Made by a program: the position numbers and the translations under genes
Notes under the pieces: generated by a model
Seen by the model: only the letters and a program-made list of their open reading frames with translations
Databases searched by the model: none
What the model was told of the DNA's origin: nothing
IMG/VR virus record: IMGVR_UViG_3300045988_157277
Span: 1-41,821 of that record
Source: a virus
Direction: 5' to 3' (one strand)
DNA: 41,821 nucleotides
Shown: positions 8,955 through 41,821 of the stretch, in pieces
How the letters are laid out: every line of letters starts with the position of its first letter
Numbering within the stretch: the first letter of the stretch is position 1

Positions 8955-9370
8955 AAAAGACAATGACACTAATTGAGTTATTCAATAAAAAAGCAGATGG
9001 AGAAGATGCACCAGAAAAATTTATATATGATAACTATACTTTTATATCAAATGATATAGGTCAATATGTAGATGAAGATGGAGATAGTATATTAGACCAT
9101 ATATGCCTTGATTTAAGCAACCTAGATGATGTAATAGAAATAATTAGTGATGAAGAAGAATTTGAAGATATAACTGAACTAGATGTTGCATTATTAAGAC
9201 AATGCGATAATTGGTTAAGATGTCCTACAAATGAAGTAACAAAACAAGATATAGAATTAAATCCATATATTATAAATAATATAAGATTAGGATTTCAACA
9301 TAAAATAAACCAATTAATCAAAAATCAAAAGAAGATAATAGAAAGGATAAATAATGAACAAAAGAATTGA
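8951..9370 (+). CDS. Highly acidic protein (139 aa). Possible DNA-mimic or anti-restriction protein.
   Basis: Very high D/E content with spaced acidic clusters. Sits in the moron region. Confidence 0.3.
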   Translation: MKKTMTLIELFNKKADGEDAPEKFIYDNYTFISNDIGQYVDEDGDSILDHICLDLSNLDDVIEIISDEEEFEDITELDVALLRQCDNWLRCPTNEVTKQDIELNPYIINNIRLGFQHKINQLIKNQKKIIERINNEQKN

Positions 9371-9605
9371 TGAATTAGGTCGTTTATGTATTCCAAAAGC
9401 AATGAGAAATGAATTAGGAATAAATGATAATGATCTAGTTAATATTGAATGTAAAGATAATAAAATAATAATATCAAATGCTAAAGAAATTCGCTCTAGA
9501 GAAGAAATAAAGAACTTTCTAGAAAGATTAAAAGCAAATGATGATGATTTATCAAAAGGAATGAAAACAGCTCTAGAATGGTGCTTAAAAGAGGATACAA
9601 AATAG
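9354..9605 (+). CDS. AbrB/MazE/SpoVT-family DNA-binding protein (83 aa)
   Basis: N-terminus 'IDELGRLCIPKAMRNELGINDNDLVNIE' matches the swapped-hairpin AbrB/MazE N-domain (compare AbrB 'VDELGRVVIPIELRRTLGI'). Confidence 0.65.
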   Translation: MNKRIDELGRLCIPKAMRNELGINDNDLVNIECKDNKIIISNAKEIRSREEIKNFLERLKANDDDLSKGMKTALEWCLKEDTK

Positions 9606-9617
9606 TATTCTTTTTTT

Positions 9618-9653
9618 GTTTCAAATAGAAACATATCATTTTACTTTTGAAAC
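9618..9653. promoter_or_regulatory. Operator copy 1: GTTTCAAATAGAAACAT-N12-TTGAAAC
   Basis: Inverted heptamers GTTTCAA/TTGAAAC with 22-nt spacing. Same architecture at 12354 and 13087. Confidence 0.55.
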
Positions 9654-9717
9654 ATTATATTGTATAATAATATATGTAAGGTAGTTAATACAAATAAACA
9701 ACAAAGGGGAAAACAAA

Positions 9718-9927
9718 ATGAAAAACATCTATCGTAAATTAACAAAAGAACAAAATGAAAGAGGAGTTATTTTCAGTAGTGTATTAGCAAATGATCTAAA
9801 TCAATATGATGAAGATATGGTACATGAAGTATTTGAAGATACTTATAAAAAAGAATTGGTAATTGAAAGATTATCAAATGCAGATTTCTTTAGTGAAGCA
9901 TACAAATATAACATTATTAGAAAATAA
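9718..9927 (+). CDS. Hypothetical small protein (69 aa)
   Basis: RBS AAAGGGGAAAACAAAATG. Followed by a hairpin terminator. Confidence 0.45.
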   Translation: MKNIYRKLTKEQNERGVIFSSVLANDLNQYDEDMVHEVFEDTYKKELVIERLSNADFFSEAYKYNIIRK

Positions 9928-9933
9928 AATAAT

Positions 9934-9960
9934 GGGAGAATTTTTTCTCCCTTTATGTTT
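9934..9960 (+). terminator. Rho-independent terminator
   Basis: GGGAGAA-tttt-TTCTCCC followed by TTTATGTTT. Confidence 0.5.
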
Positions 9961-9992
9961 CAAATAGTAAAATATAAAAGGGGTAATGAATA

Positions 9993-10148
9993 ATGAAAGT
10001 TTTTAGCAAAGAGAAGTTTATTGAAATAGAAGGTTATGAAGTTTATCAGAAATGTAAAGATTGGGTAGATGTTATAGATGGTAAAAGAGTGGAAAAAGGT
10101 GAAGTTGATGGTTGGTTATCAGATAAAGCTTGGGAGGTTGAAAAATGA
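9993..10148 (+). CDS. Small ORF (51 aa), plus strand, not in the track
   Basis: RBS AAAGGGG. Preceded by the operator-like motif GTTTCAAATAGTAAAAT at 9957-9973. Favoured over the minus-strand ORF 10072..10317. Confidence 0.4.
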   Translation: MKVFSKEKFIEIEGYEVYQKCKDWVDVIDGKRVEKGEVDGWLSDKAWEVEK

Positions 10149-10311
10149 TAGCATTAGCAAAAGAACTACAAGAAGCATTTGATAAATATAATTGGTATGC
10201 ATGTGAAGATGACCAAGTAGGCTGGTATGAGATGTTAGATGAAATACAAGATCCTAGTGATGAAAAGGAAATAAGAGAAGTCATTAAAAACTTAAAAGCA
10301 GCTACAATATG
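10144..10311 (+). CDS. Small acidic ORF (55 aa), ATGA-coupled to the previous ORF
   Basis: Start overlaps the upstream stop. Ends just before the bidirectional terminator. Confidence 0.4.
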
Positions 10312-10315
10312 AAGC

Positions 10316-10348
10316 ATTAAAAAAGAACCTTAAGAGGTTCTTTTTTTT
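10316..10348. terminator. Bidirectional rho-independent terminator
   Basis: AAAAAAG-AGAACCT-taag-AGGTTCT-TTTTTTTT. Confidence 0.7.
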
Positions 10349-10419
10349 GTTGGTATTAAAACATATAATACTATGGTTCTGTACTATAAGTTCCATAGAA
10401 CTACAAGCAGTTACACCAA
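10348..10419. other. Candidate attP: ~72-bp imperfect dyad-symmetric region between two terminators, adjacent to the serine integrase 3' end
   Basis: Nested inverted repeats GTTGGT...ACCAAC and CTATGG...CCATAG share one centre at 10383/10384. Confidence 0.35.
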
Positions 10420-10420
10420 C

Positions 10421-10450
10421 AATAAAAACCCTTGAAAAACAAGGGTTTTA
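10421..10450 (-). terminator. Terminator of the integrase gene
   Basis: CCCTTG-aaaaa-CAAGGG flanked by an A-run and a T-run, immediately 3' of the int stop. Confidence 0.65.
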
Positions 10451-10454
10451 ACAA

Positions 10455-12308
10455 CTACATATAAATAGTTAATTCCATATCATCAGAATCATTTCTTCGC
10501 CAGTTCATCCTTTTTGTTTTTTTATAGACAATTTTTTCAATAAATGATTTTAATAATTCGTTTTTATCTGATATACTTGCAAGTGTATTATATTGATTGA
10601 TGCAGTTTGCCAAAATGGGAACTGCTTTTTTATATTGTATTATAATCTCTTCTTCATCTTTGTTAGAAAGTTTATCTTTTTCTTTTGATAATTCATCAAT
10701 TTGTGATTCATAATAATTTTTATCTTCTAAATATTCTTCATAACTAAATTTTTCTTCGTTATAATCTCTACGAGCATTTCTTAAAGCAACTTTAAATTTG
10801 GTTAATTTATTTTCAATTTGTTTCAATCTTTTTTCATTGTTTGTTTTTTTCTTTTTTGCTTCTTGCTCATAATTATCAAGAAAGTATTTATAATCATTTA
10901 ATGTTTGCTCTAATTTGTTTAATATAGCCGCTTCAACTTTATCTAATGTACTTGATACATTTTTACAATTTAGATCAGGACATTGCAGCATATCTTTTCT
11001 TGGTTCAGGTTCTTTATATGTTGTTATTACTTTATCAAACTTATTATCTTTAATATTTAAAAGTGTTTTTAATTCAGGCCATTTTTGAGTAAAAACATCA
11101 GAATAAATTATTTTTTCTTCTTTTTTTCTAAACCATCCAGCAACTAATGCTTTTGTAATATTTAATTCATTTGCAATATCTTGAAGTGATAAATTTGTTT
11201 GATTTTTATGTTCTGTTAAATATTGTGATAATTCAAGTTTATTAATTTCGTAAACTCTTACTTTTTTTCTTTCGTGTTTTCTAGTACATGGATTTCTTAC
11301 AAGTGATCTACCACAATAATGACAAAATACTACACCAGCTAAAGGATTTTTTAATTCTCTATTTAATCCAGTTCTTGAATTAGGATTATTCTTTATTTTT
11401 GCTTGTGCTAGTTCATACATCTCTTTAGAAATTAATGGCTCATGTAATCCTTTAACAATTAAATAATTTTCTTGCCTAGGTCGTGTTTTAACAATTCTTT
11501 CACCATCAATTAACTTTTTTAAGACTTTTCTTTTTTCATTTACTAAAACACCATAATAAGTTTCATTTTCAAGTATGTTGTTTACCATACCATAATTCCA
11601 TGGAGTTTTAGTTCTTGATTCACATCCTTGTTGATTTAAGTAATTTGCTAATTCATGGCTGCTCATACTTTCAACAAATAATTCAAACATCATTTTAACA
11701 ATTGGTGCTTCTACTGGATGTGGAACTAATTTAAAACCTTTATCAAGTTTTTCCCTATCATATCCAAAAGGAGCGGTTGAATAAATGTATTTGCCTTCTT
11801 CTAAACTTATCTTCTTACCTCTTTTTAAAATGGTTTTAGTGTATTCAAGGTATTCATTACCTTGAGTTAATTCCATTTCAAATATTTTTCGGTCAAATTT
11901 ATTATTTAAATCGTAAGTTTTAGATAAAGTTATGCATAGTGTCTCACTATATCTAAATACATTTACTACACGCCCACAATCCTCCATATCTCCCCTAGAT
12001 AGCCTTTGAGGTTCTACAACTAATACTGCTTTAATATCATCATCAGCTAATTTATTAAATACTTTCTTAATTTCAATTCGATCATCAATTGTTTCACCAG
12101 ATACAACTTCACGAAAAATATTTTCTTCTGGTATTCTTTCACCAAAATTTCTTATTGCATAATCTTGCAGCATCTTTTCATGTCTTGCTAAAACAACTTG
12201 TAGATCCTCTTTTTCTTCATTTCTTGATTTCCTTAAATAAATTATTATTTGATGTACTTTAATAGTTGATAAAACATTAAAAAGTTGTTCTATGTTACCG
12301 ATTTCCAT
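10455..12308 (-). CDS. int: Large serine recombinase (phage integrase, 617 aa)
   Basis: N-terminal resolvase catalytic domain with 'IIIYLRKSRNEE' (the nucleophilic Ser context). A recombinase domain, a Cys-containing zinc ribbon (CHYCGR...C) and a C-terminal coiled coil typical of large serine integrases. Confidence 0.85.
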   Translation of the reverse strand: MEIGNIEQLFNVLSTIKVHQIIIYLRKSRNEEKEDLQVVLARHEKMLQDYAIRNFGERIPEENIFREVVSGETIDDRIEIKKVFNKLADDDIKAVLVVEPQRLSRGDMEDCGRVVNVFRYSETLCITLSKTYDLNNKFDRKIFEMELTQGNEYLEYTKTILKRGKKISLEEGKYIYSTAPFGYDREKLDKGFKLVPHPVEAPIVKMMFELFVESMSSHELANYLNQQGCESRTKTPWNYGMVNNILENETYYGVLVNEKRKVLKKLIDGERIVKTRPRQENYLIVKGLHEPLISKEMYELAQAKIKNNPNSRTGLNRELKNPLAGVVFCHYCGRSLVRNPCTRKHERKKVRVYEINKLELSQYLTEHKNQTNLSLQDIANELNITKALVAGWFRKKEEKIIYSDVFTQKWPELKTLLNIKDNKFDKVITTYKEPEPRKDMLQCPDLNCKNVSSTLDKVEAAILNKLEQTLNDYKYFLDNYEQEAKKKKTNNEKRLKQIENKLTKFKVALRNARRDYNEEKFSYEEYLEDKNYYESQIDELSKEKDKLSNKDEEEIIIQYKKAVPILANCINQYNTLASISDKNELLKSFIEKIVYKKTKRMNWRRNDSDDMELTIYM

Positions 12309-12353
12309 AATTTTTCTATTCCCCTTGATGAAATTATTTGATTAAATAAAATT

Positions 12354-12389
12354 GTTTCAAATAGTAAAATTAGTTCGTATGATTGAAAC
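12354..12389. promoter_or_regulatory. Operator copy 2: GTTTCAAATAGTAAAAT-N12-TTGAAAC
   Basis: Same 36-bp architecture and spacing as 9618 and 13087. Lies between the int start and the 12440 ORF. Confidence 0.55.
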
Positions 12390-12439
12390 AAAAGCATTGT
12401 TTTTATATAACTACATATATTGTTTTGAGGTGATTTTTA

Positions 12440-12594
12440 TGAAAGTAAAAGTTATTATGCAACCACCAACAAAAGAAAAATTAAAAATCATTTATGATGT
12501 ATGCAACAAAATTTTTCGTGATAATGAAGATGTATTTTACACAAAAGAACAAGTTAAAGAACTAAAAAAAGATACGTCAAATATCTTTTTGTAA
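12440..12594 (+). CDS. Small ORF (51 aa) convergent with and overlapping the cI 3' end
   Basis: RBS GAGGTGA 8 nt upstream of the ATG at 12440 (the track ORF starts earlier, at 12352). Confidence 0.35.
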
Positions 12595-12942
12595 ATCATC
12601 TTTAGCCTTTAAAAACATTCTAAATATTTGTTCTTGAAGTTCATATTTTTCTTCAAGAGGTATAGAATTATTTTCAAAAATCATTCTAGCTCTTTCCAAC
12701 AATTCGATTGTTTCAATTTCTTCGCTAACAACTCCAAGTGTAGCAAGACTAACACCAAAATAATCTGCTATTTTTTTGATTTGTTGGATGTTTAAATTAC
12801 GTTTACCGTTTTCTAAATTGCTCCATTGTGAACGTGAAACACCAATTATTTCAGAAGCCTGTAATTGATCCATACCTCTTGCTTTTCTTAATTCTTTAAT
12901 TCGTTTACCTATATCCTTTGTATCTAAAGGCTTGTTATTCAT
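12577..12942 (-). CDS. cI: XRE-family HTH repressor (CI-like, 121 aa)
   Basis: 'IGKRIKELRKARGMDQLQASEIIGVSRSQWSNLENGKRNLNIQQIKKIADYFGVSL' is a canonical Cro/C1-type HTH. Divergent from a cro-like gene. Confidence 0.8.
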   Translation of the reverse strand: MNNKPLDTKDIGKRIKELRKARGMDQLQASEIIGVSRSQWSNLENGKRNLNIQQIKKIADYFGVSLATLGVVSEEIETIELLERARMIFENNSIPLEEKYELQEQIFRMFLKAKDDLQKDI

Positions 12943-13034
12943 TTATACAACTCCTTTTGTTTTTTTATACAATAGTAATTTTATCTTATATTATTCAAAA
13001 AGTAAAATAATATGTTTATTATGTAAAATATGAG

Positions 13035-13062
13035 TTGACTTTTTAAATTATTCTAGTATAAT
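13035..13062 (+). promoter_or_regulatory. Sigma-A-type promoter for the cro-direction early transcript
   Basis: TTGACT, 16 nt, TATAAT. The operator copy lies downstream in the leader. Confidence 0.5.
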
Positions 13063-13086
13063 TTTAATTGAGAATAGTTTTATGAT

Positions 13087-13122
13087 TATTCAAATAGTAA
13101 AATATGAAGATATTGTTGAAAC
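13087..13122. promoter_or_regulatory. Operator copy 3: (A)TTCAAATAGTAAAAT-N12-TTGAAAC in the cro leader
   Basis: Identical spacing to copies 1 and 2. Confidence 0.55.
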
Positions 13123-13134
13123 GGAGGTGATTAA

Positions 13135-13335
13135 ATGAAAAGATTGAATCTATTGTTATTTAGAAAGAAAAAAGGATTAAATCAAAAACAGATGGCCGAC
13201 AAATTAGAAATTACAAGGCAACATTACAATAGATTAGAAAATGGTATTGGTCAGCCATCAATACAACTATTAGAAAAATTTGCAATTGAATTTTCTGAAA
13301 TTGATGATATGTGGGAACTTTGGAAAAAAAGTTAG
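13135..13335 (+). CDS. cro: Cro-like XRE HTH protein (66 aa)
   Basis: 'GLNQKQMADKLEITRQHYNRLENG' HTH. RBS GGAGGTGA. Divergent from cI. Confidence 0.75.
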   Translation: MKRLNLLLFRKKKGLNQKQMADKLEITRQHYNRLENGIGQPSIQLLEKFAIEFSEIDDMWELWKKS

Positions 13336-13411: not shown

Positions 13412-13612
13412 ATGAAATCTGATAATATTGTAGCAGTAATTGAAAAGCTTGGAGAAATCATTATACATAACAAAAATGACATTTCATATTTAGAATATGA
13501 AAATGAAAAATTAAGAGAAGAAATTGCAAAAATTGAAGAAAAAATTAGTTATTACATAGAACAATTAGAACAAAATGTTACGGATAGTGATTATAAAGAA
13601 AATATTAAATAA
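13412..13612 (+). CDS. Small coiled-coil protein (66 aa)
   Basis: RBS GAGG. Heptad-rich sequence. Confidence 0.4.
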   Translation: MKSDNIVAVIEKLGEIIIHNKNDISYLEYENEKLREEIAKIEEKISYYIEQLEQNVTDSDYKENIK

Positions 13613-13719
13613 TACATATAATGTTTCAGATAGTAAACAAAATAAAATTTATTGAAAAATTATGTTTTTCTTAAAAAAATAAAAATTGCTGAAAAACATA
13701 AAATAAAGGAGGTGAATAG

Positions 13720-15016: not shown

Positions 15017-15161
15017 GGATCAATGTGATGTATGCAAAAAAATGGATTATTGTAAAGGATATAAAGGATTAGTGCTATGCAATAAATGTATTAAAAAAGA
15101 AGTTTCTAAAGCACCAAAGATAATAGGTGATAAAAATGGACAAACAAGATTTAATTTCTAA
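15000..15161 (+). CDS. Small Cys-rich ORF (53 aa; CxxC...CxxC), not in the track
   Basis: 'DQCDVCKK...YCKG...LCNKCIKK'. Weak RBS. Overlaps both neighbouring genes. Confidence 0.2.
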   Translation: MKKTFKDQCDVCKKMDYCKGYKGLVLCNKCIKKEVSKAPKIIGDKNGQTRFNF

Positions 15162-15996
15162 ATTAGATGATTGGTTATTGGAACTTAAATATGATGAAAA
15201 GGCTGCTAATACATTAAAGCAATATAAAAATAATGTTATGAAGTTTATAGATTGGCTTCCTGATGATGATAAACCAATAACTAAAGTTACTACTATGGAT
15301 TATAAAGAATATTTAAGAACAATCACTCAAAGTCCTAAAAGTATGAATGTATGGATTGTATCATTAAATAAATATTTAAGATGGTTAGGCCATAACGATT
15401 TAACTATTAAAAAATATAAAATGCAAGAGCAAAGTAGTAATGAAGAATCATTAACTATAGCAGATTTCAAAAGATTATTAAGAATTGCAAATAGGATTGG
15501 TAATGAACAGCTTTATTACATAATTAAAGTATTAGGTATGACAGGCTGCAGAATTGGAGAATTGAAATATTTTACAGTTGAAAACCTAGAAAAAACACCT
15601 AGAAAAAATATTAAAGTTTATAACAAAGGAAAAGATAGAGAAATTGTTATAAGGCAAGATTTATCAAGAGAACTAAAACATTTTTATAAAAAAAGAGGAA
15701 TTGAAAGTGGTTTTATATTCTTATCAACTGATCCAAAATGTAAAGACAAAATGCCATGTGTATCAACTATATGGAGGCAAATGCAAAAAGTTGCTGGATT
15801 AGCAAGAATAAATAAAGAAAAAGTACATCCTCATAATTTCAGACATTTATTTGCTCAAGTATTTTTAGATACATATCCTGAAAATGTTTTAGATCTAGCG
15901 GATTTATTAGGCCATAACGATTTAAAAACAACTAGGATATATACTAAAACATCAGGTGAACAAAAGAGAATTAAATTAGAAAAGGTTAAATTTTAA
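15127..15996 (+). CDS. Tyrosine recombinase, XerC/XerD-like phage integrase family (289 aa)
   Basis: N-terminal SAM-like core-binding domain. C-terminal catalytic motifs '...MTGCRIGELKYF...', 'HPHNFRHLFA', 'LGHNDLKTTRIYTKT' (R...H-x-x-R...Y). Confidence 0.8.
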   Translation: MIKMDKQDLISKLDDWLLELKYDEKAANTLKQYKNNVMKFIDWLPDDDKPITKVTTMDYKEYLRTITQSPKSMNVWIVSLNKYLRWLGHNDLTIKKYKMQEQSSNEESLTIADFKRLLRIANRIGNEQLYYIIKVLGMTGCRIGELKYFTVENLEKTPRKNIKVYNKGKDREIVIRQDLSRELKHFYKKRGIESGFIFLSTDPKCKDKMPCVSTIWRQMQKVAGLARINKEKVHPHNFRHLFAQVFLDTYPENVLDLADLLGHNDLKTTRIYTKTSGEQKRIKLEKVKF

Positions 15997-16555: not shown

Positions 16556-16792
16556 ATGAAAAATAATTTAAATGATGTAAATAATTATTTATTTGAAGAA
16601 TTAGAAAGATTAAATGATGATGAAACTTTAGAAAGTGAAGATAACTTTAAAAAGGAAATACAAAGAGCAAAAGCAGTATCATCAATATGTTCTACAATAG
16701 TATCAAATGCAAACTTAATATTAAATGCTAAAAAATATGCTGATGAATTAGGAATAAATGAAAAAGAAGTATTGCAGTTAAAGGAAAAATAG
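16556..16792 (+). CDS. Hypothetical protein (78 aa)
   Basis: Tightly packed, with RBS GAGG. Confidence 0.4.
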   Translation: MKNNLNDVNNYLFEELERLNDDETLESEDNFKKEIQRAKAVSSICSTIVSNANLILNAKKYADELGINEKEVLQLKEK

Positions 16793-17411: not shown

Positions 17412-17568
17412 ACAATTATATTATGATCTACTTTATGAACATAAAAAAGCATTAAAAAAAATTAAAGATTTAGAGCAAGAACTAGAAACTTTATCAAAGT
17501 ATAAAGATATTGAAATAAAAAAAATATTGGTAGAACAATTAATTAAATTTAAAAAGAAAAGTAAGTAA
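17398..17568 (+). CDS. Small coiled-coil protein (the track ORF starts at 17374)
   Basis: Overlaps the 3' end of the upstream gene. K/E-rich. Confidence 0.3.
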   Translation: MKDYEQLYYDLLYEHKKALKKIKDLEQELETLSKYKDIEIKKILVEQLIKFKKKSK

Positions 17569-17659
17569 ATAAATTTATTTACTAAATGAAACATTATTCG
17601 ATGGTTATAAAAAGAATAGTAAAAATAAATTTACTATTTGAATTAAAGGAGGATAAATA

Positions 17660-17800
17660 ATGAATCAATATGAAAGAAGATTTTATGAAGATATTCATAA
17701 ATTAGTAATTATTCAAGAAAAAATATTAAAAGAATTAAAAAAGATGAATGAACCAATTATTGAGTATAAAGAAAAGCCAAAAGATAAGGAGAGTGAATAG
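17660..17800 (+). CDS. Small ORF (46 aa), not in the track
   Basis: RBS AAGGAGGATAAATAATG. Stop overlaps the next start in the conserved GGAGAGTGAATAGATG junction. Confidence 0.4.
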   Translation: MNQYERRFYEDIHKLVIIQEKILKELKKMNEPIIEYKEKPKDKESE

Positions 17801-19023: not shown

Positions 19024-19087
19024 AAACTATTTTAGATAGTAAATAAGGCTTTAAGCATTGATATATATAGGTTTGTGTAGTATTGTG

Positions 19088-19344: not shown

Positions 19345-19613
19345 TAAAAATAAAAAATGATGTTTATTTTAAAGAATTATATAAATATGGTTTCAAAATG
19401 AGTGATGGAAATACCTTTATGTATAAACCAAGAAAATATACTGATATACCTCTAATAACAATAGATGTAAAAACAAAAATAATTAGTATTCAAGGAATTT
19501 GTGATATGCATAACACTGTTGAAGATACTTTATATAGTTTATTTAAAGATGATTTGGTAGAAGAATTTAAAGTTGAAATTGATGTTTCAAATAGTAAATT
19601 TAAAAAGGAGTAA
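19341..19613 (+). CDS. Hypothetical protein (90 aa)
   Basis: ATGA-coupled. Confidence 0.45.
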   Translation: MIKIKNDVYFKELYKYGFKMSDGNTFMYKPRKYTDIPLITIDVKTKIISIQGICDMHNTVEDTLYSLFKDDLVEEFKVEIDVSNSKFKKE

Positions 19614-20042: not shown

Positions 20043-21014
20043 ATGGCGATTTTTAGAAATGTAAATATGAGTTTTTGGACTGATCCAAAAGTAGTTGATG
20101 ATTATACACCAGAAGATAGATATTTTATGTTATATGCTTTAACTAATAACTATACCAATATAATAGGTTGTTATGAAATAAGTATAAAGCAAATGAGTAA
20201 TGATTTAGGATATAACAAAGATACTGTAGAAAAAATAATAAATAGATTTAAAGAAATACATAAAACAATTGATTATGATTTTGATACAAAAGAATTATTA
20301 GTAGTTAATTGGTACAAATACAATTGGAGTGCTTCACCAAAATTAGATAATCCATTATATGTAGCAATAGAAAAAGTAAAGAGTGATTTATTCCATGATA
20401 AATTAGCAACTATTTACAATAATAGAGAAAGTGTAATAAAAGAAAAAGATACCATATCTATACCATATCGATATGGTATAGATACAACTATTACTATTAC
20501 TAATACTATTCCTATTTCTATTCCTATTTCTAATTCTATTTCTAATAATAATATATATAATAATAATATTAATAATATTAATAATAATGAACTAGAAGAA
20601 GAATTTAATATTATCTGGACAAATTATCCTAGAAAGCAAGGAAAAGCAAAAGCATTAAAATCATATATTAAAGCTCGAAAAAAAGGTGTAACTAAAGAAA
20701 TTATATATAATGGTTTAAAAAATTATTTAAGATATATTGAAATTGGAAAAGTTGAAACACAATATATAAAACAAGGTTCAACGTGGTTTAATCAAGAATG
20801 TTGGAATGATGATTATTCAATTAATAATAATTCAAATACATACAAAAGAAATGAAGTAGTTCCAGATTGGCTTAATAAAAATATAAAATATGAAACTGCT
20901 AGTCCTGAAGAAATAAAAGAATTAGAAAATTCATTGAGTGAATTTAAAGATCCTGATTTTGAAGAAAGAAAAGCAGCTCTACAAGAAAAATTAAAAAATA
21001 AATATAAAAAATAA
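20043..21014 (+). CDS. Replication initiation protein or replisome organizer (DnaD-like N-terminus plus the conserved C-terminal 'WxxYPRKxGKxxAxK...W(F/L)NQExW' domain)
   Basis: 'FNIIWTNYPRKQGKAKALKSYIKARKKG...QGSTWFNQECWNDDY' is the hallmark C-terminal motif of Firmicute phage replication initiators. A low-complexity central linker is encoded by iteron-like DNA. Confidence 0.65.
   Translation: MAIFRNVNMSFWTDPKVVDDYTPEDRYFMLYALTNNYTNIIGCYEISIKQMSNDLGYNKDTVEKIINRFKEIHKTIDYDFDTKELLVVNWYKYNWSASPKLDNPLYVAIEKVKSDLFHDKLATIYNNRESVIKEKDTISIPYRYGIDTTITITNTIPISIPISNSISNNNIYNNNINNINNNELEEEFNIIWTNYPRKQGKAKALKSYIKARKKGVTKEIIYNGLKNYLRYIEIGKVETQYIKQGSTWFNQECWNDDYSINNNSNTYKRNEVVPDWLNKNIKYETASPEEIKELENSLSEFKDPDFEERKAALQEKLKNKYKK
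20500..20590. repeat. Candidate ori inside the rep gene: (T)ATTCCTATTTCT/CTATTTCT iterons followed by an AT-rich AATAATATT repeat tract
   Basis: tattcctatttctattcctatttctaattctatttct, then aataataatatatataataataatattaataatattaataataat. Confidence 0.45.
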
Positions 21015-21029
21015 AAAGGTGGTGTTATT

Positions 21030-21461
21030 ATGAAAAATTATATAATTACATCTAATGAATTAGATATAGTAAATAGAAGATTATTCAGATTATATGCAAG
21101 AAAACAAAAATTAAATGAAGAAATAACTAATTGTAATAGTCATTTAAAAGAGATAGTTACAAGTGGTGGTGTAGTTAGTGATAAAATGACTAATTATGTA
21201 GCCGAACTTGAAGAAGTAGATAATGAGATATTAGAACTTGAAAATCAAGCAAAAGAATTAAAAACAGATCTTGATTATATGGATAGTAGATTATCGAATA
21301 TAAATGAAATAAAGGAGCAAGTATTTGTAATGTACTTTATAAGAGGGTTAAAGCCTTTACAAATTGCTCCTAAAATTCCATGTGGTAAGTCAAGTGTATA
21401 TAGATACATTGATGAAATCAATAAAGAACGTGCAAGTTGGGAAAAAATAAGAAAAATTTGA
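21030..21461 (+). CDS. Putative late-gene transcriptional regulator (sigma-70 region-4-like HTH, ArpU/RinA-like; 143 aa)
   Basis: C-terminal 'VFVMYFIRGLKPLQIAPKIPCGKSSVYRYIDEI' resembles a region-4 HTH. N-terminal coiled coil. Located after the replication genes and ahead of the late region. Confidence 0.4.
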   Translation: MKNYIITSNELDIVNRRLFRLYARKQKLNEEITNCNSHLKEIVTSGGVVSDKMTNYVAELEEVDNEILELENQAKELKTDLDYMDSRLSNINEIKEQVFVMYFIRGLKPLQIAPKIPCGKSSVYRYIDEINKERASWEKIRKI

Positions 21462-22373: not shown

Positions 22374-23228
22374 ATGATAATTGATATAACTTTAAATGAT
22401 TTTAAAGAAATTACATCCAATAGTGATTTTATTGGTAAAGTATCTGAAAATAAAGCAACGATATTAAAATTTCATTTAACTGAAAAACTATCAAAATATA
22501 ATTTTTATTTAGATTTTGAAAAGCCTAATGGATCTAAATTTACTACTCAAAAATTAAATATTGTTGATAATACAGTTGAATATGAAATAACAAATAGTTT
22601 ATTAGATGAAAATGGATATTTATTACTTGAAGTTGTTTTAACAAATGATAATGAAAAAATAATTTATCCTTCATTAAACTTCAAAATAGAAACATCTATA
22701 AATGCTACTAATGAATTAGCACCTGAAAATAAAACATTAATATCTGAAATTGAGGATGTATTAAATAAAATTGATACTACTGGAAATGGAGATAAATTTT
22801 TAAGCGATGATGGCACATATAAAAACGTAAGTAGTTCAGGTGGAACAACTGATTATGATGATTTAACTAATCAGCCTATAAAAAGATTAGTTAGTATGGA
22901 TCAAACTAATCCAATTGTATTAAGAAATTTAGATAGTGGTATTTATTGTTTACATGGTTATATATTACCTTTTGATGGTTCTACTGATTTATTTGTAGCA
23001 CAAACTCCAATATCAGTTAATATTGCAAAATCAAGTAGTATTTCATTTATTCAATTATTTTTTTCATTTGGCAATCAACTACAATACTTTGAAGTAACTG
23101 ATAGCAATTATACACTTAATACAATCTCATTTAATAATTTAGCAACTAAAGAATATATTGATAATGTTGTTGGAAGTATTAACACCGAATTAGCAACATT
23201 AACAACTGTTAGTGAGGTTAGTGAATAA
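22374..23228 (+). CDS. Tail-fiber-like protein (284 aa) with a 'GDKFLSDDGTYK' motif
   Basis: RBS AAGGAGGTG. The G-x-KFL-x-DDGT-W/Y-K motif is common in Firmicute phage fiber/RBP proteins. Confidence 0.5.
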   Translation: MIIDITLNDFKEITSNSDFIGKVSENKATILKFHLTEKLSKYNFYLDFEKPNGSKFTTQKLNIVDNTVEYEITNSLLDENGYLLLEVVLTNDNEKIIYPSLNFKIETSINATNELAPENKTLISEIEDVLNKIDTTGNGDKFLSDDGTYKNVSSSGGTTDYDDLTNQPIKRLVSMDQTNPIVLRNLDSGIYCLHGYILPFDGSTDLFVAQTPISVNIAKSSSISFIQLFFSFGNQLQYFEVTDSNYTLNTISFNNLATKEYIDNVVGSINTELATLTTVSEVSE

Positions 23229-24415
23229 TGGCAACTACAACAGATTACATAAATCAATTAAAAACAGATAAGCAAACACTAGCAAATAATTTAGTTGCAA
23301 AAGGTATTGAAGCAACAAATGATGAAACTTTTACTTCTTTAGTTCCAAAAGTATTAGATATACAAACTGGAATAACACCTAGTGGCTCTATTGATATAAC
23401 GGAAAACGGAACTTATGATGTAACTGATAAAGAAAGTGCTATTGTAAATGTTCCTACTAAAACATTAGGAACTAAAACAATAACTGCAAATGGAACATAT
23501 AAAGCAAGTGATGATAATTTAGATGGTTATAGTGAAGTTGAAGTTGATACTGGTAAATATGCACCTAGAGCAAAAATAAGTTTTGAAAATTATACTGGTA
23601 CAGAATTAGATTATGAACTTGCTAATTTAGATACAAGTAATATTACTTTAATGAATAGTATGTTTTCTAATTGTAAAAATTTAACAAGTTTAGATGTAAG
23701 TAATTTTGATACTTCAAAAGTTACTAGATTAGATTATATGTTTAATTATTGTGAAAAATTAACAAGTTTAGATGTAAGTAATTTTGATACAAGTAATTGT
23801 ACTGCAATGTACGATATGTTTGAAAGATGTTCAAATTTAAAAACATTGGATTTAAGTAATTTTGATACATCAAAGGTTGATAGAATGAACCAAATGTTTT
23901 ATTTTTGTTCATCTCTAATAAGTTTAAATTTAAGTAATTTTAATACAAGTAATGTTACTACTATGGCATCAATGTTTTCGAATTGTGCAAATTTAGAAAC
24001 AATAAAAATAAATTCATTTGATACATCAAAAGTTACTAATCTTAGCAGTACTTTTAATAATTGTATGAAATTAGATACAATACCTCAATTAAATGGTAAT
24101 AATATAAATAATTTAAGTAGTTCTTTCTTTAATTGCAATAATTTAACTAATTTTAATGGTATTACTAATTTAGGACAAGCATATAGTACATCACAAAGTG
24201 CAAATTATTCATATTATAAATTAATATTATCTAGTTGTACTAAATTAACAGAACAAAGTTTAATAAATATATTAAATAATTTATATGATATAGCAACTAA
24301 AGGTTGTAATACTCAATCGGTAGTATTAGGAAGTACTAATTTAGCAAAATTAACTAGTGATGAAGGACAACTTGCATTAGATAATGCAGCTACTAAAGGT
24401 TGGGCAGTATCATAG
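23228..24415 (+). CDS. BspA-type leucine-rich-repeat (LRR_5) surface/adhesin-like protein (395 aa)
   Basis: About 8 tandem ~26-aa repeats 'LTSLDVSNFDTSKVTxLDYMFNYCEKL'. Confidence 0.65.
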   Translation: MATTTDYINQLKTDKQTLANNLVAKGIEATNDETFTSLVPKVLDIQTGITPSGSIDITENGTYDVTDKESAIVNVPTKTLGTKTITANGTYKASDDNLDGYSEVEVDTGKYAPRAKISFENYTGTELDYELANLDTSNITLMNSMFSNCKNLTSLDVSNFDTSKVTRLDYMFNYCEKLTSLDVSNFDTSNCTAMYDMFERCSNLKTLDLSNFDTSKVDRMNQMFYFCSSLISLNLSNFNTSNVTTMASMFSNCANLETIKINSFDTSKVTNLSSTFNNCMKLDTIPQLNGNNINNLSSSFFNCNNLTNFNGITNLGQAYSTSQSANYSYYKLILSSCTKLTEQSLINILNNLYDIATKGCNTQSVVLGSTNLAKLTSDEGQLALDNAATKGWAVS

Positions 24416-24431
24416 AAAGGAGGGATTAAAT

Positions 24432-24698
24432 ATGTATGATATTCCAGAAACAGCAACATTGTTAAAAGAAGGCTTATATGTTGATTATTACACTTATCCT
24501 AGTGGCAATGTTCAAACGAGATTATATGCAGATGAAGGTTGGGCTATATATCATATAAATTCTGTTGAAGGTGAGGATAGAACATATCATTATAGAGTTT
24601 ATCTAGCATATAACGATAGTGTAGATAATTATAATGTATGTCAAGTAACACCTGATATGGAAGTAGTAGGTATGCCTAAAGAAGAAGAAGTAATATAA
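24432..24698 (+). CDS. Hypothetical protein (88 aa; the track ORF starts at 24384)
   Basis: RBS AAAGGAGGGATTAAATATG. Confidence 0.45.
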   Translation: MYDIPETATLLKEGLYVDYYTYPSGNVQTRLYADEGWAIYHINSVEGEDRTYHYRVYLAYNDSVDNYNVCQVTPDMEVVGMPKEEEVI

Positions 24699-24711
24699 GA
24701 GGTGATAATAT

Positions 24712-24891
24712 ATGATCTTAGTTGAAAATAATTTAACTAGTACAAGTACCACAAATGCTTTAAGTGCAAATATGGGAAGAATTTTAAATGAAGCTATTGA
24801 AACTCTTGAATTAAGAGTTATTGCAATAGAAGGTACTACACTAGATATTAGTGCATTATCTAGTGAAGAAATTTTAGAAATTATAGAGTAA
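24712..24891 (+). CDS. Short tail-fiber-motif protein (59 aa), not in the track
   Basis: RBS AGAGGTGA. 'ENNLTSTSTTNALSANMGRILNEAIE' matches the 'NLTSTSTTDALSAxQGKxL' motif of Firmicute phage fibers. Confidence 0.4.
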   Translation: MILVENNLTSTSTTNALSANMGRILNEAIETLELRVIAIEGTTLDISALSSEEILEIIE

Positions 24892-24905
24892 AGGAGAGTG
24901 ATTAA

Positions 24906-25214
24906 ATGAAATTTCTAGATAGTACAGGTCTAACACAAGTTTGGACTAAAATAACAACATTATTAGGAGGAAAAGTTGATAAAGTTGATGGTAAAGGATT
25001 ATCAACAAATGACTTTACAACAGAAGAAAAAACAAAATTAGAAGGATTAAGTAATTATGATGATACAGCATTAGCTGGTAGAGTTACTGCTATTGAAGGT
25101 GCTGGATATCAAACATCTGCTCAAGTTCAAAGTGCTATTGATACTGCTATTGCTGGTGCAGATACTTGTCAACCATTAACAAGTGCTGAAATAACAGCTA
25201 TTATTGGCAGCTAG
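24906..25214 (+). CDS. Tail-fiber-motif protein (102 aa)
   Basis: RBS AAGGAGAGTGATTAAATG. 'KVDKVDGKGLSTNDFTTEEKTKLEGL' is the classic prophage tail-fibre repeat motif. Confidence 0.5.
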   Translation: MKFLDSTGLTQVWTKITTLLGGKVDKVDGKGLSTNDFTTEEKTKLEGLSNYDDTALAGRVTAIEGAGYQTSAQVQSAIDTAIAGADTCQPLTSAEITAIIGS

Positions 25215-25216
25215 TA

Positions 25217-26152
25217 ATGAAAGTATTAGATGAAAATGGTTTAGAAGTATTAAAGCAATATTTATTAGCTGAATTGCCATTAATTAACCCTAGTGATTGG
25301 GAACAATTAACATCTCCTGGAACAGCAACAATATATAAATTAAAAGTAATTAATAATCAATTAGTAGCACCAGCTTATAGACAAATGTATGCAACAGAAG
25401 ATGGAGAAAATTGGACATCAACAGCATACGGTAGTGCATTAAATGATGTGTGCTATTTTAAAGGAAATTATATAGTTGCTAGAACTGGTGGAGCATACAT
25501 AGGTACTGCATTAGATAATTTAACATATAGTGCTTTTTACAGCAGCATAGCAAATACATGTTGCACTGATGGAAATATAGTTGTTGTAGCTGGAAATGGA
25601 GGTGGGATATGCTATTCTACCGATGGTACAAACTTCATACAAGCAACATCTCCAGTAACAAACGATATATCAGCAAGTATTTACAATAATGGATTGTTTA
25701 TATTAGTTGGAAGAAGTGGAACTATATTGACAAGTGAAGATGGTGTAAATTGGGTAAAAAGAACGAGCAATATTACAACTGGATTAAACGATATTTTCTA
25801 TGATGGTAAAAAATATATAGTTGTAGGTAATAGTAAAGTAATACTAACATCCAATGATGGAATAACATGGACAAATATTACAACTAATCTACCATCAACA
25901 GATATACAAACAATCTATTATCAAGATAATTATTACATTATAACAGCAAGTTCAAACACATTATATTATTCAAAAGACTTAACATCATTTACATCAGTAA
26001 GCATAGATAAAACATGTTATGCTATAGTATATTTTAAAGATCAATTATATATATCTGGAAGTAGTGGATATATTGCCAGAGCATCTATAACAGACCAAAA
26101 ATTAAATTTACAAGAAGTTGCTAATTACTTTCTGAACAAAATAAATAAATAA
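25217..26152 (+). CDS. BNR/Asp-box repeat beta-propeller protein (311 aa). Putative carbohydrate-binding or receptor-binding protein.
   Basis: Repeated S/T-x-D-G-x-x-W/F boxes: TEDGENWTST, YSTDGTNFIQ, TSEDGVNWVK, TSNDGITWTN, YSKDLTSFTS. Confidence 0.6.
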   Translation: MKVLDENGLEVLKQYLLAELPLINPSDWEQLTSPGTATIYKLKVINNQLVAPAYRQMYATEDGENWTSTAYGSALNDVCYFKGNYIVARTGGAYIGTALDNLTYSAFYSSIANTCCTDGNIVVVAGNGGGICYSTDGTNFIQATSPVTNDISASIYNNGLFILVGRSGTILTSEDGVNWVKRTSNITTGLNDIFYDGKKYIVVGNSKVILTSNDGITWTNITTNLPSTDIQTIYYQDNYYIITASSNTLYYSKDLTSFTSVSIDKTCYAIVYFKDQLYISGSSGYIARASITDQKLNLQEVANYFLNKINK

Positions 26153-27756: not shown

Positions 27757-27788
27757 TGTTTCAAATTGTAAATTAAGGAGGTGATAAC

Positions 27789-28250
27789 GTGGCAAGGCCA
27801 AGACAACCTATTGAACTCATTGAAGCAAAGGGTAAAAAACATTTAACTAAGGCTGAAATTGAAATAAGAAAAAATTCAGAGTTAAAAGTTGATTTAAAAA
27901 ATGTATGTATACCTGATTATTTACCAGCAAAATTAAAAAGTGAATTTGAAGAAATTGCTTCAAAACTTTTACATGTTGGAGTTATGACAGAACTTGATGA
28001 AGATTGTCTTGCACGTTATCTACTTTCAAAACAAAGTTATCTTAAATATACAAGTATGCTTAATAAAGCAACTCAACAAAATAAGATACTGGAAATGGAA
28101 AAATTAATGACTATGCAAGATAAAGCATTTAAACAATGTCGAGCATGTGCTAATGATTTAGGATTAACAATTGCTTCAAGATGTAAACTGGTAATGCCTG
28201 AAACAAAAGAACCACCAAAAGAAAATAAATTTGCGAAGTTTGGTGGTTAG
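27789..28250 (+). CDS. terS: Terminase small subunit, P27 family
   Basis: GTG start with RBS AAGGAGGTGA. 'MARPRQPIELIEAKGKKHLTKAEIE' is the P27-family N-terminus. Directly upstream of TerL. Confidence 0.7.
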   Translation: MARPRQPIELIEAKGKKHLTKAEIEIRKNSELKVDLKNVCIPDYLPAKLKSEFEEIASKLLHVGVMTELDEDCLARYLLSKQSYLKYTSMLNKATQQNKILEMEKLMTMQDKAFKQCRACANDLGLTIASRCKLVMPETKEPPKENKFAKFGG

Positions 28251-33302: not shown

Positions 33303-33581
33303 ATGCCTACAATAGATGAAATCAAAGACTATTTAGGAATTGATTATAATGATGATGTTTCAAATAGAAACATTAAAAAATATATGAGTGTCGCTGATAG
33401 TTGGTTAAAAGGTGCTATTGGAGAAAATTATCCTAAAAATGATGAAAGGGCTAAACAATTAGCTCTTTTTGTCATTGAGGATTTATATGATAGAGGTTCA
33501 TATTCTGTAAAAGAAAATAAGAACATTGAAAAAATGAAAAACGACTTTATAATGCAACTTCAATGTGAAGGTAGAAAGTAA
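33303..33581 (+). CDS. Head-tail connector (gp6-like)
   Basis: 'IDEIKDYLGIDYNDD' is the characteristic N-terminus. Confidence 0.6.
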   Translation: MPTIDEIKDYLGIDYNDDVSNRNIKKYMSVADSWLKGAIGENYPKNDERAKQLALFVIEDLYDRGSYSVKENKNIEKMKNDFIMQLQCEGRK

Positions 33582-41153: not shown

Positions 41154-41821
41154 TGGCGAAAAGTGGATATAAAGATTTTGTAGTAACTAATGATGGTTAT
41201 ATTAAATTAAGATATTCATGGAGTGCTGGAACTCAAAACATAACAAATAACTTCACTCCTATTTCATGGGTATTGCAATTAATTAGTACTAATTCTAAAG
41301 CAAATATTAGTTCAAGTGTAAGTAAAAATTATTCGGTAACTACTGATAGTGCTACTTCAAGTGGTACTAATACAGTAGGTTTAAATGGTGGAGCAACTAA
41401 AACTTTAGCAAGTGGATCTAAAAACATATATCATGGTTCAGATGGTAAGAAAACATTTAGTTTCTCAATTAGTCAAGAATTTAATATTACTTATAGTGGT
41501 GTTTCTATAGGAACTATTACTGGTAGTGGAACTGGTACATTAGATGATATTCCTAGAAGTTCAGTATTAGGAACAATAAATAATTTTACAATAGGTAACG
41601 CAATTACAATACCTATTACTAAATATAGCGATAGTTTTAGTGATACTCTTAATATTTATGTAGGAGATACTTGGATAAAGAGAGTTGAAGGACTTACAAA
41701 TAATCAAAGTGTATCATTTACAACTTCTGAACTAAATAATATTTATAATGCTATGTCAAATGTAACAAGTGCTACTTTTAAATTTGTAAATTCAACATAT
41801 AGTGGAGCAAATATTATAGGA
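41153..41821 (+). CDS. Tail or baseplate-associated protein, 5' part. The gene wraps across the circular junction and continues to 1481, ~676 aa in total.
   Basis: ATG at 41153 overlaps the Tal stop (TAATG). The frame stays open to the window end and matches the frame of 51..1481. Ser/Thr/Asn-rich beta-type tail protein composition. Confidence 0.7.
   Translation, partial: MAKSGYKDFVVTNDGYIKLRYSWSAGTQNITNNFTPISWVLQLISTNSKANISSSVSKNYSVTTDSATSSGTNTVGLNGGATKTLASGSKNIYHGSDGKKTFSFSISQEFNITYSGVSIGTITGSGTGTLDDIPRSSVLGTINNFTIGNAITIPITKYSDSFSDTLNIYVGDTWIKRVEGLTNNQSVSFTTSELNNIYNAMSNVTSATFKFVNSTYSGANIIG

Follow-up and report, generated by a model that had tools for sequence, protein, structure and literature searches.

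In the cluster A mycobacteriophages (L5 with its repressor gp71, Bxb1 and TipsytheTRex), one repressor acts on more than 20 copies of a short asymmetric site; these sites, known as stoperators, are located at promoters and in short intergenic gaps, their orientation correlates with transcription, and they have been proposed to stop both initiation and elongation (PMC9283540, PMC1934351). The cluster A repressor is a 183-amino acid monomer with two DNA-binding domains, namely a helix-turn-helix (HTH) and a 'stoperator' domain (PMC9283540). Repressors that act on multiple dispersed asymmetric operators, with no single tripartite palindromic cluster, have also been described in coliphages P1 and P7 (C1) and in Bacillus phage phi105 (PMC1934351). 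For the lactococcal phage TP901-1, two reports describe a small HTH repressor without a LexA-like cleavage domain and a cooperative, looping-based mode of repression (PMC7250872, PMC4941734). Here we analyze a short repeat, TGTTTCAAATAGTAAA, dispersed in a 41,821-nt stretch of viral DNA (IMG/VR record IMGVR_UViG_3300045988_157277; the whole stretch is referred to as the window). On sequence evidence, this repeat is most likely the operator of the phage's own CI-like repressor, encoded by cI (12577..12942, − strand).

As in the L5-type phages, the repeat is present in 11 copies that are mostly intergenic and co-directional with genes, including a copy in the first lytic gene's leader. The differences from this type concern the repressor, the site, its distribution and the host. 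CI has 121 amino acids, with one Xre-type HTH and a hairpin, and no sequence relation to gp71; with this single-HTH architecture, it does not fit the monomeric two-domain cluster A repressor. The site is a 16-bp pseudo-palindrome, whereas the stoperator is 13 bp long and fully asymmetric; the copies cluster in the early region and are not distributed genome-wide; and the host is low-GC and Firmicute-like instead of an actinobacterium. The dispersal and conserved asymmetry of the putative operators resemble those of P1 C1 and phi105. In the CI/MOR switch of TP901-1 (operators OR, OL and OD), the repressor promoter has an operator of its own, and a further one is placed past the lytic promoter, close to the first lytic gene. 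The window shares with TP901-1 the divergent lysogenic and lytic promoters, the same operator placement and a small HTH repressor, but has about 11 dispersed sites against three local palindromic ones, and the TP901-1 CI is a hexameric protein of 180 amino acids. Unlike lambda and 434, the window has no strong operator copy over the core of its lytic promoter and its CI has no LexA-like S24 domain. The system would work like the dispersed-operator repressors, yet it is not a member of the L5 family.

Enrichment, conservation and anatomy of the repeat

Allowing up to two mismatches, TGTTTCAAATAGTAAA occurs in 10 copies in the window, against 0.28 ± 0.53 expected from dinucleotide shuffles; this enrichment, which an earlier note on this DNA had proposed to check by motif search against a shuffled background, is strong. 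The motif is also the top word of the window's intergenic DNA other than the ribosome-binding site (RBS). Relatives, designated below by L numbers, were obtained through an exact-match scan of IMG/VR and, for other loci, by way of Rep, TerL and CI homologues. A weight matrix trained solely on related phages identified 11 sites in the window scoring between 16.5 (the lowest accepted score) and 27.6, with the next candidate at 11.3. Nine are on the + strand (9617, 9956, 12353, 12991, 13086, 13622, 19583, 27757 and 33356) and two on the − strand (17578 and 17630). Although intergenic DNA makes up roughly 10% of the genome, 9 of the 11 sites are intergenic; 9 of the 11 are also co-directional with genes, as are nearly all sites in at least nine related lineages. 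Single copies are found 0-35 nt (sometimes ~80 nt) from the next start codon, many of them just before RBSs.

Alignments of the window with L082 and L035 showed that substitutions and indels fill the flanks of the sites and leave a 17-19-mer intact: both at the cro leader and in the gap after the gene at 13412-13612, ATTATTCAAATAGTAAAAT and AATGTTTCA(A/G)ATAGTAAA are unchanged. The repeat sequence is under purifying selection. The earlier note had described the conserved operator as a 36-bp bipartite element, in which the inverted heptamers GTTTCAA and TTGAAAC are separated by 22 nt. Our analysis does not bear out this unit, as the information content of 53 distinct family sites has sharp edges at the 16-mer, with a faint signal at +32 to +37, and as the downstream partner is lost in relatives. 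The TTGAAAC is gone from the cro leader in the L082 and L057 groups, is retained there in L041 and L048 with a spacing one base shorter (N21), and is also retained at the site next to the integrase gene (int) and in the moron-promoter module. Since the cro-leader TTGAAAC was lost while the 17-19-mer stayed intact, the bipartite form is a feature of a subset of sites and not the unit itself; the conserved unit is a pseudo-palindrome of ~16 bp (15-18).

The center of this pseudo-palindrome is A9 of TGTTTCAAATAGTAAA, with the symmetric pairs T3/A15, T4/A14, C6/G12 and A8/T10; C6 and G12, which are symmetric to each other, are the most informative positions. The left half, TGTTTCAA, is strong and the right half, AGTAAAAT, is weaker, yet conserved. 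The variants GTTTCAAATAGAAAC (9617 and 33356) and ...AAATTG... (27757) shift toward the perfect palindrome GTTTCAA-A-TTGAAAC. What had been taken for a 36-bp operator is a pair of copies, one forward and the other inverted and half-degenerate, with centers ~21 bp apart and the strong TGTTTCAA halves facing outward.

At or within 1-6 nt of the positions listed in the earlier note, the repeat was indeed present, and our inventory modifies that list in several details. Two of the three full bipartite copies are exact matches to GTTTCAA-N22-TTGAAAC (9618-9653 and 12354-12389, against 0.00 expected). The third, at 13087-13122, has the identical 22-nt spacing but a left heptamer, TATTCAA, with two mismatches to GTTTCAA. 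A fourth, near-bipartite copy had been overlooked (13623, GTTTCAG-N22-TTGAAAA, with the TTGAAAA at 13652-13658). Among the half copies, those at 9956, 13622, 19583 and 27757 (+ strand) and at 17578 and 17630 (− strand) are real and the one at 19031 is weak (3/15 mismatches), while the strong copies at 12991-13006 and 33356-33371 had been missed.

The first bipartite site begins with TGTTTCAAATAGAAAC (9617..9632, + strand, score 20.2), a near-perfect palindrome variant of the form GTTTC-N5-GAAAC located 12 nt past the end of an AbrB-like gene. Its inverted, weaker partner (9638..9653, − strand; reverse complement GTTTCAAAAGTAAAAT) covers the −35 hexamer TTTACT (9640-9645) of a moron promoter, TTTACT-17-TATAAT (9640-9668). 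The second bipartite site starts with an exact copy (12353..12368, + strand) between the start of int (12308, − strand) and a 51-amino acid open reading frame (ORF; 12439, + strand), and ends with an inverted, half-conserved partner (12374..12390, − strand; TTGAAAC at 12383-12389). The bottom strand of this int-proximal copy provides TTGAAA to a possible int promoter, which is predicted in the window, L082 and L367 and not in L041 or L371.

Most of the other copies precede genes. An exact copy (9956..9971, + strand, score 27.5) lies 4 nt past a terminator (9934-9951) and 21 nt ahead of the ATG at 9993, and another (19583..19598, + strand, score 27.6) lies ~20 nt upstream of an RBS and ATG (~19620). 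TGTTTCAGATAGTAAA (13622..13637, + strand) directly follows the stop codon of the gene at 13412-13612, and TGTTTCAAATTGTAAA (27757..27772, + strand, score 19.2) is found 16 nt before the GTG start codon of the small terminase gene (27789). The two − strand copies are TGTTTCATTTAGTAAA (17578..17593, score 16.9), in a region of AT-only palindromes, and TAATTCAAATAGTAAA (17630..17645, score 16.5), which is part of a palindrome at 17613-17638 and immediately precedes the RBS of the ORF at 17660. The in-gene copy (33356..33371, + strand) lies inside a structural (head-tail) gene (33303-33581), where it encodes VSNRN. As the same 15-mer is present in the heteroimmune phage L289, this copy is probably passenger coding sequence kept by descent.

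Several further observations concern these sites. An 18-nt stretch at the in-gene copy is identical to 9617-9634. At 17563-17645, the AGTAAA half of the motif makes up two AT-only palindromes, AGTAAATAAATTTATTTACT and AATAGTAAA-N6-TTTACTATT, which contain the only reverse-oriented copies; this arrangement is kept in L098 and L049 and more loosely in L367. The pair at 9617 belongs to a moron cassette, composed of the operator pair, the TTTACT-17-TATAAT promoter and a leader with RBS, followed by a small gene that differs between cassettes and a terminator. The window has one such unit (9617-10346), and L098 (1-1330) and L035 (1500-2830) have three units each, in tandem.

Switch geometry and association with the CI family

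The Xre-type cI gene is divergent from a cro-like gene and the operators lie between them, a layout of the lambda/434 type. We compared this region in 11 lineages, 10 by script (window included) and L367 by eye. Copy A, TTATTCAAAAAGTAAA (12991..13006, + strand, score 17.3), is located 28 nt upstream of the −35 hexamer of the predicted lytic promoter P_R (TTGACT-16-TATAAT, 13035..13062, + strand, 11/12 matches). Its bottom strand contains the −35 hexamer of the predicted, P_RM-like cI promoter (TTTACT-17-TAAAAT, 12978..13006, − strand). The same holds for 10 of the 11 lineages, L368 alone deviating: 16-18 nt separate the −35-like hexamer from a −10-like one, 24-42 nt ahead of the cI start codon. 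In six lineages, copy A ends 26-29 nt short of the P_R −35. Copy B, TTATTCAAATAGTAAA (13086..13101, + strand), lies in the cro leader, and a leader copy downstream of P_R is present in seven lineages, starting 21-50 nt past the −10. Relative to the predicted P_R start site, the strong copies of the window occupy ~−79 to −64 and ~+17 to +32. Copy B is followed, 22 nt past its TATTCAA, by the TTGAAAC half-site (13116..13122, no strand assigned) that is not kept in the L082 and L057 groups. A degenerate copy of uncertain status that is 1 nt shorter, TGTTTATTATGTAAAAT (13012..13028, + strand), lies 21 bp from copy A, abuts the P_R −35 and is conserved in the L082 group.

The presence of the motif follows the CI family, of which 63 clusters were identified. 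Among 43 loci retrieved via the Rep protein, independently of the motif, the three with a member of the CI family hold 9-11 copies each and the 40 without it hold none; the latter include L245 and L246, with Rep proteins 74% and 67% identical to that of the window (best tblastn segment). In 80 TerL-related loci (1.11 Mb), the matches were limited to the in-gene copy, present in three family members, and a single stray one, and the TerL-related DNA without the CI family (~1.07 Mb) contained one match. L289 and L252 have TerL (89%) and Rep (57%) in common with the window, but not CI, and lack the motif save for the coding passenger. L367 (CI 63% identical) has merely int, the 51-amino acid ORF and cI in common with the window, and its replication genes (SNF2, PDDEXK and D5-type) are unrelated to those of the window; its copies of the motif are found beside int, on both sides of P_R and among early genes.

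The sequence of the motif also varies with CI. In CI lineages at 54-100% identity, the motif mostly ends in ...AGTAAA(A), with ...AGCAAAC in L371 (54%). In those at 39-48%, the left core TTCAAA(T/A) is kept and the right half is A(C/A)GAAAC or ACAAAC, and these variant motifs are again located at the switch and directly before the RBSs of early genes. Residues R37, Q39, S41, N42 and E44 of the recognition helix are invariant across the CI lineages, as is the TTCAAA(T/A) core, and an N-terminal extension, LDTKD, is confined to lineages with at least 54% identity. Enrichment, purifying selection, fixed switch geometry, and co-occurrence and co-variation with CI were all established computationally.

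The motif tracks the CI family and no other testable candidate. The AbrB-like protein, Cro, the product of the 51-amino acid ORF and the XerC-like recombinase were rejected as binders, each being missing or undetected in at least one motif-bearing lineage: L369 and L372 lack the 51-amino acid ORF, a tyrosine recombinase was not detected in the L041 locus, and no Phage_integrase domain was seen in the L367 locus. The earlier note had suggested that one phage regulator, most plausibly the CI-like protein, acts at dispersed early sites, and this association with its family makes CI the best candidate. From the co-occurrence, we infer that CI controls the dispersed operators.

Two groups of relatives deserve mention here. 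In the heteroimmune L245 and L246, we looked for an equivalent dispersed motif and found none. The switch of L245 has a layout like that of the window and a different sequence; a putative operator of its own, AAATAACCCAA, occurs twice at 9597-9712, 105 bp apart, around its P_R, and is not dispersed. L098 (IMG/VR 3300045988_140876) is a natural deletion derivative of a close relative at 1490-1790. The deletion removed int together with the C-terminal half of cI, so that CI is truncated to 90 amino acids; all operator copies are kept, and L098 may be a virulent or defective variant.

In Pfam, CI matched Xre-type HTH families exclusively, and no S24 (LexA-like autocleavage) peptidase domain was found. 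Its AlphaFold2 model (mean pLDDT 81.6, above 90 in the HTH) shows a canonical five-helix Xre HTH followed by long helices at residues 74-90 and 96-119; no second DNA-binding domain was seen in the model, and no mycobacteriophage repressor was among the PDB sequence matches. GenBank phages gave just weak matches to the HTH region by tblastn (<45% identity). The best solved folds are the controller (C) proteins C.AhdI and C.BclI for the HTH domain, together with SinR, which aligned over 114 columns and also covers the C-terminal helices. C proteins bind two adjacent pseudo-palindromic sites, spanning ~35 bp, as cooperating dimers, and SinR recognizes 7-bp half-sites in variable arrangements. By analogy, the 36-bp paired sites of the window resemble bipartite C-boxes in structure, but SinR and the C proteins are host or restriction-modification regulators with one or few targets and not phage immunity repressors. 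The dimeric regulator suggested in the earlier note is compatible with the model, in which the C-terminal two-helix hairpin resembles that of SinR-type dimerizing repressors; this predicted architecture would fit binding to pseudo-palindromic sites as a dimer or as two paired dimers.

A probable CI operator network and its alternatives

Considering the sequence comparisons as a whole, we favor as the probable explanation a CI operator network with stoperator-like roadblock sites. CI would bind the pseudo-palindrome, probably as a dimer, and two dimers may cooperate at the three or four places with pairs, in which the second site is inverted, weaker and separated from the first by ~21 bp (two helical turns). 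On copy A, CI would occlude its own promoter, resulting in autoregulation; on copy B (+15 to +44 across lineages), it would block P_R transcripts and might form a loop with copy A around P_R. The int-proximal pair (12353-12390) would control int and the 51-amino acid ORF, and the pair at 9617-9653 would control the moron promoter, whose −35 lies within the inverted partner. Finally, the single copies before the genes at 9993, 13720 and ~19620 and before the small terminase gene, which are intergenic and all oriented along transcription, could serve as elongation roadblocks that silence the prophage. The earlier note had treated the sites as marking separate early transcription units, but most sit downstream of promoters or directly before RBSs, which suggests roadblocks rather than classical promoter occlusion. 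Such roadblocks would be useful in a very AT-rich genome with abundant chance promoter-like sequences; matches of this kind in the region are not above those in shuffled sequence (83 vs. 97). We regard a roadblock role for the dispersed copies as plausible, and hold it more tentatively than the identity of the operator.

Several points weigh against this explanation. No strong copy lies over the P_R core, where merely the degenerate copy abuts the −35, and L368, L370 and L371 have no leader copy, leaving the shut-off of P_R unexplained there. A symmetric homodimer does not obviously explain the conserved asymmetry and orientation of the site, and the position of many copies 0-35 nt from RBSs would also be expected from a role at the RNA level. 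The copy at 33356 is shared with a phage that lacks this CI, so some copies may have no function. The association evidence is, moreover, partly phylogenetic, as the three positive loci of the Rep set form one clade.

Among the alternatives, the Cro-like protein (13135-13335), or another early lytic regulator, could be the main binder and shut down or time early lytic transcription. Cro belongs to the HTH_3 family, its gene directly follows copy B, and in the classical switches of lambda and 434 Cro and CI share operators; however, L367, L369, L371 and L372 all carry the motif with a first lytic gene that does not encode an HTH protein, homologues of the window Cro were found solely in the L082 group and L048, and no pairwise similarity between CI and Cro was detectable. 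We consider this reading unlikely, although Cro may share the sites with CI in this particular phage. The AbrB/MazE-like protein (9354-9605), proposed as another possible binder in the earlier note, has an AbrB-type DNA-binding fold and a gene that ends next to the 9617 site, and MazE-like genes are found near int in L368, L369 and L370. A local role at the moron promoter is possible, but its homologues are limited to the window clade (65% over 46 amino acids in L035), with none found in the available, partial loci of the motif-bearing L041, L048 and L057 group, and as the general binder it is the least probable of the candidates considered. The repeat might also act in the mRNA, as a 5′-untranslated region element read by an RNA-binding protein or nuclease that controls translation or processing of early genes. 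This would agree with nearly all copies being on the sense strand and with many having a Shine-Dalgarno sequence 0-35 nt past their end. Nevertheless, copy A and the int-proximal copy, which are the most conserved in position, lie upstream of rightward promoters and opposite leftward genes, probably outside sense transcripts; the common form GUUUC...GUAAA pairs poorly; and the protein with which the motif co-occurs and co-varies is a DNA-binding HTH protein. Fold z-scores were −2.0 to +1.1 at the bipartite sites and not better than shuffles at most sites tested, and searches of the sites in Rfam and for tRNAs gave no match. On these grounds an RNA hairpin or riboregulator was rejected, and an RNA element of any kind appears improbable.

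A promoter or activator site for a phage factor, such as the ArpU-like regulator (21030-21461), an alternative sigma factor or a phage RNA polymerase, would be expected to precede genes in their orientation, as the copies do. Copies directly after terminators (9956, L098 350 and L035 1845), the copy before the small terminase gene, a usual location of late promoters in Gram-positive siphophages, and the presence of a gene for a phrog_36 regulator all point in the same direction. In L048, however, the motif abuts the RBS (TGTTTCAAATAGTAAAAGGAGG), which leaves no room for a downstream start site; no −10-like element is conserved, in distant lineages the right half becomes GAAAC, and promoter-like matches in the region do not exceed those in shuffled sequence. 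For these reasons a sigma-70 or alternative promoter within the motif was rejected. Copy B, moreover, lies within a transcript already driven by a strong sigma-A promoter, no RNA polymerase gene was found in the gene annotation searches of the window, and the motif tracks CI rather than the ArpU-like gene; we therefore give the promoter reading very little weight. Just as doubtful is the proposal that the repeats are module-boundary or recombination sequences, either targets of the XerC-like recombinase (15127-15996) or microhomologies for cassette exchange, with the int-proximal palindrome even serving as attP. The copies are found at gene boundaries whose flanking genes differ between relatives, the moron cassettes of L098 and L035 have identical operator-promoter-leader modules, and the phage has a second, tyrosine-type recombinase. 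Against this, the motif is present in lineages in which that recombinase (L041) or its Phage_integrase domain (L367) went undetected, the sites do not have the two-arm layout with a 6-8-bp spacer of tyrosine-recombinase cores, and their constant placement with respect to the cI promoter and P_R, seen in 10 of 11 lineages, is a regulatory geometry. The same architecture at the moron promoters and in the cro leader speaks against attP, and any recombination there could be a side effect instead of their function.

Returning to CI as the binder, a more speculative possibility is that stoperator-type, genome-wide silencing arose independently in low-GC gut Firmicutes phages, by means of a small dimeric Xre/SinR-like repressor. 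In this scenario, which we regard as possible but less likely than not, a symmetric dimer bound to a site with one strong and one weak half would form an orientation-dependent roadblock for RNA polymerase before the RBSs of early genes. Control of a whole prophage through many oriented sites is documented mainly in actinobacteriophages (L5 and cluster A), P1 and phi105. If the scenario holds, the strategy would have evolved convergently with the commonest repressor fold and could be widespread in AT-rich Firmicutes phages, with their abundant chance promoters; it would offer a small, portable repressor and a 16-bp site for orientation-dependent transcriptional insulation. For an uncultured family of human-gut phages, it would also provide an immunity-group marker that can be computed from the CI lineage and the operator variant. 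If the sites are ordinary auxiliary operators, the result would amount to routine phage annotation.

Genome context and neighboring genes

The window is an AT-rich (~25% GC) temperate genome of the siphophage type. An exact 119-nt direct repeat at its two ends (1-119 and 41703-41821) corresponds to a k-mer overlap and indicates a circular assembly with a real genome of ~41,702 bp (~41.7 kb). This contig and one near-identical contig were both found in metagenome assemblies (source samples ERZ27229703 and BRIT16), and the phage is an uncultured gut phage. Megablast of the window against GenBank phages gave no match, none being close at the DNA level, and the nearest cultured relatives by TerL are Clostridium and Fusobacterium phages (45-48% amino acid identity). 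A search of genome contigs with the exact 17-mer returned unrelated single matches, with none related to the window among the matches listed.

Upstream of the switch, the AbrB/MazE-like gene (9354-9605) encodes 83 amino acids, and the integrase gene (10455-12308, − strand), which adjoins cI, encodes a large serine recombinase. Between int and cI, the 51-amino acid ORF (12439-12594, + strand) converges on cI with an 18-nt overlap and is kept (57-90%) in most lineages that have int and cI arranged in this way; its product may be an excision or directionality factor controlled through the operator. To the right of the switch, the cro-like gene (13135-13335, + strand) is the first lytic gene, and the early region also includes the XerC/D-like tyrosine recombinase gene (15127-15996, + strand), a DnaD-like replication protein gene (20043-21014, + strand) and the ArpU-like regulator gene (21030-21461, + strand). 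The small and large terminase genes begin at 27789.

The phage carries two recombinases, the large serine one beside cI and the tyrosine one inside the early operon, the latter with 87-93% identity in some relatives and undetected in others. For an ORF of 78 amino acids (16556-16792), the match is to a PHROG annotated as 'RNA polymerase beta subunit' (E = 1e-21). Between the early and the terminase genes, at 23228-26152, lie genes for a DUF285/LRR protein and for a BNR/beta-propeller-like protein, an unusual location for such genes. Finally, a likely replication origin (20451-20588) lies within the DnaD-like rep gene and comprises an inverted repeat (20451-20488, stem of 17 bp) and, after it, ~8.5 copies of the 12-bp iteron ACTAATACTATT; iterons resembling these are present at 10442-10531 in L245.

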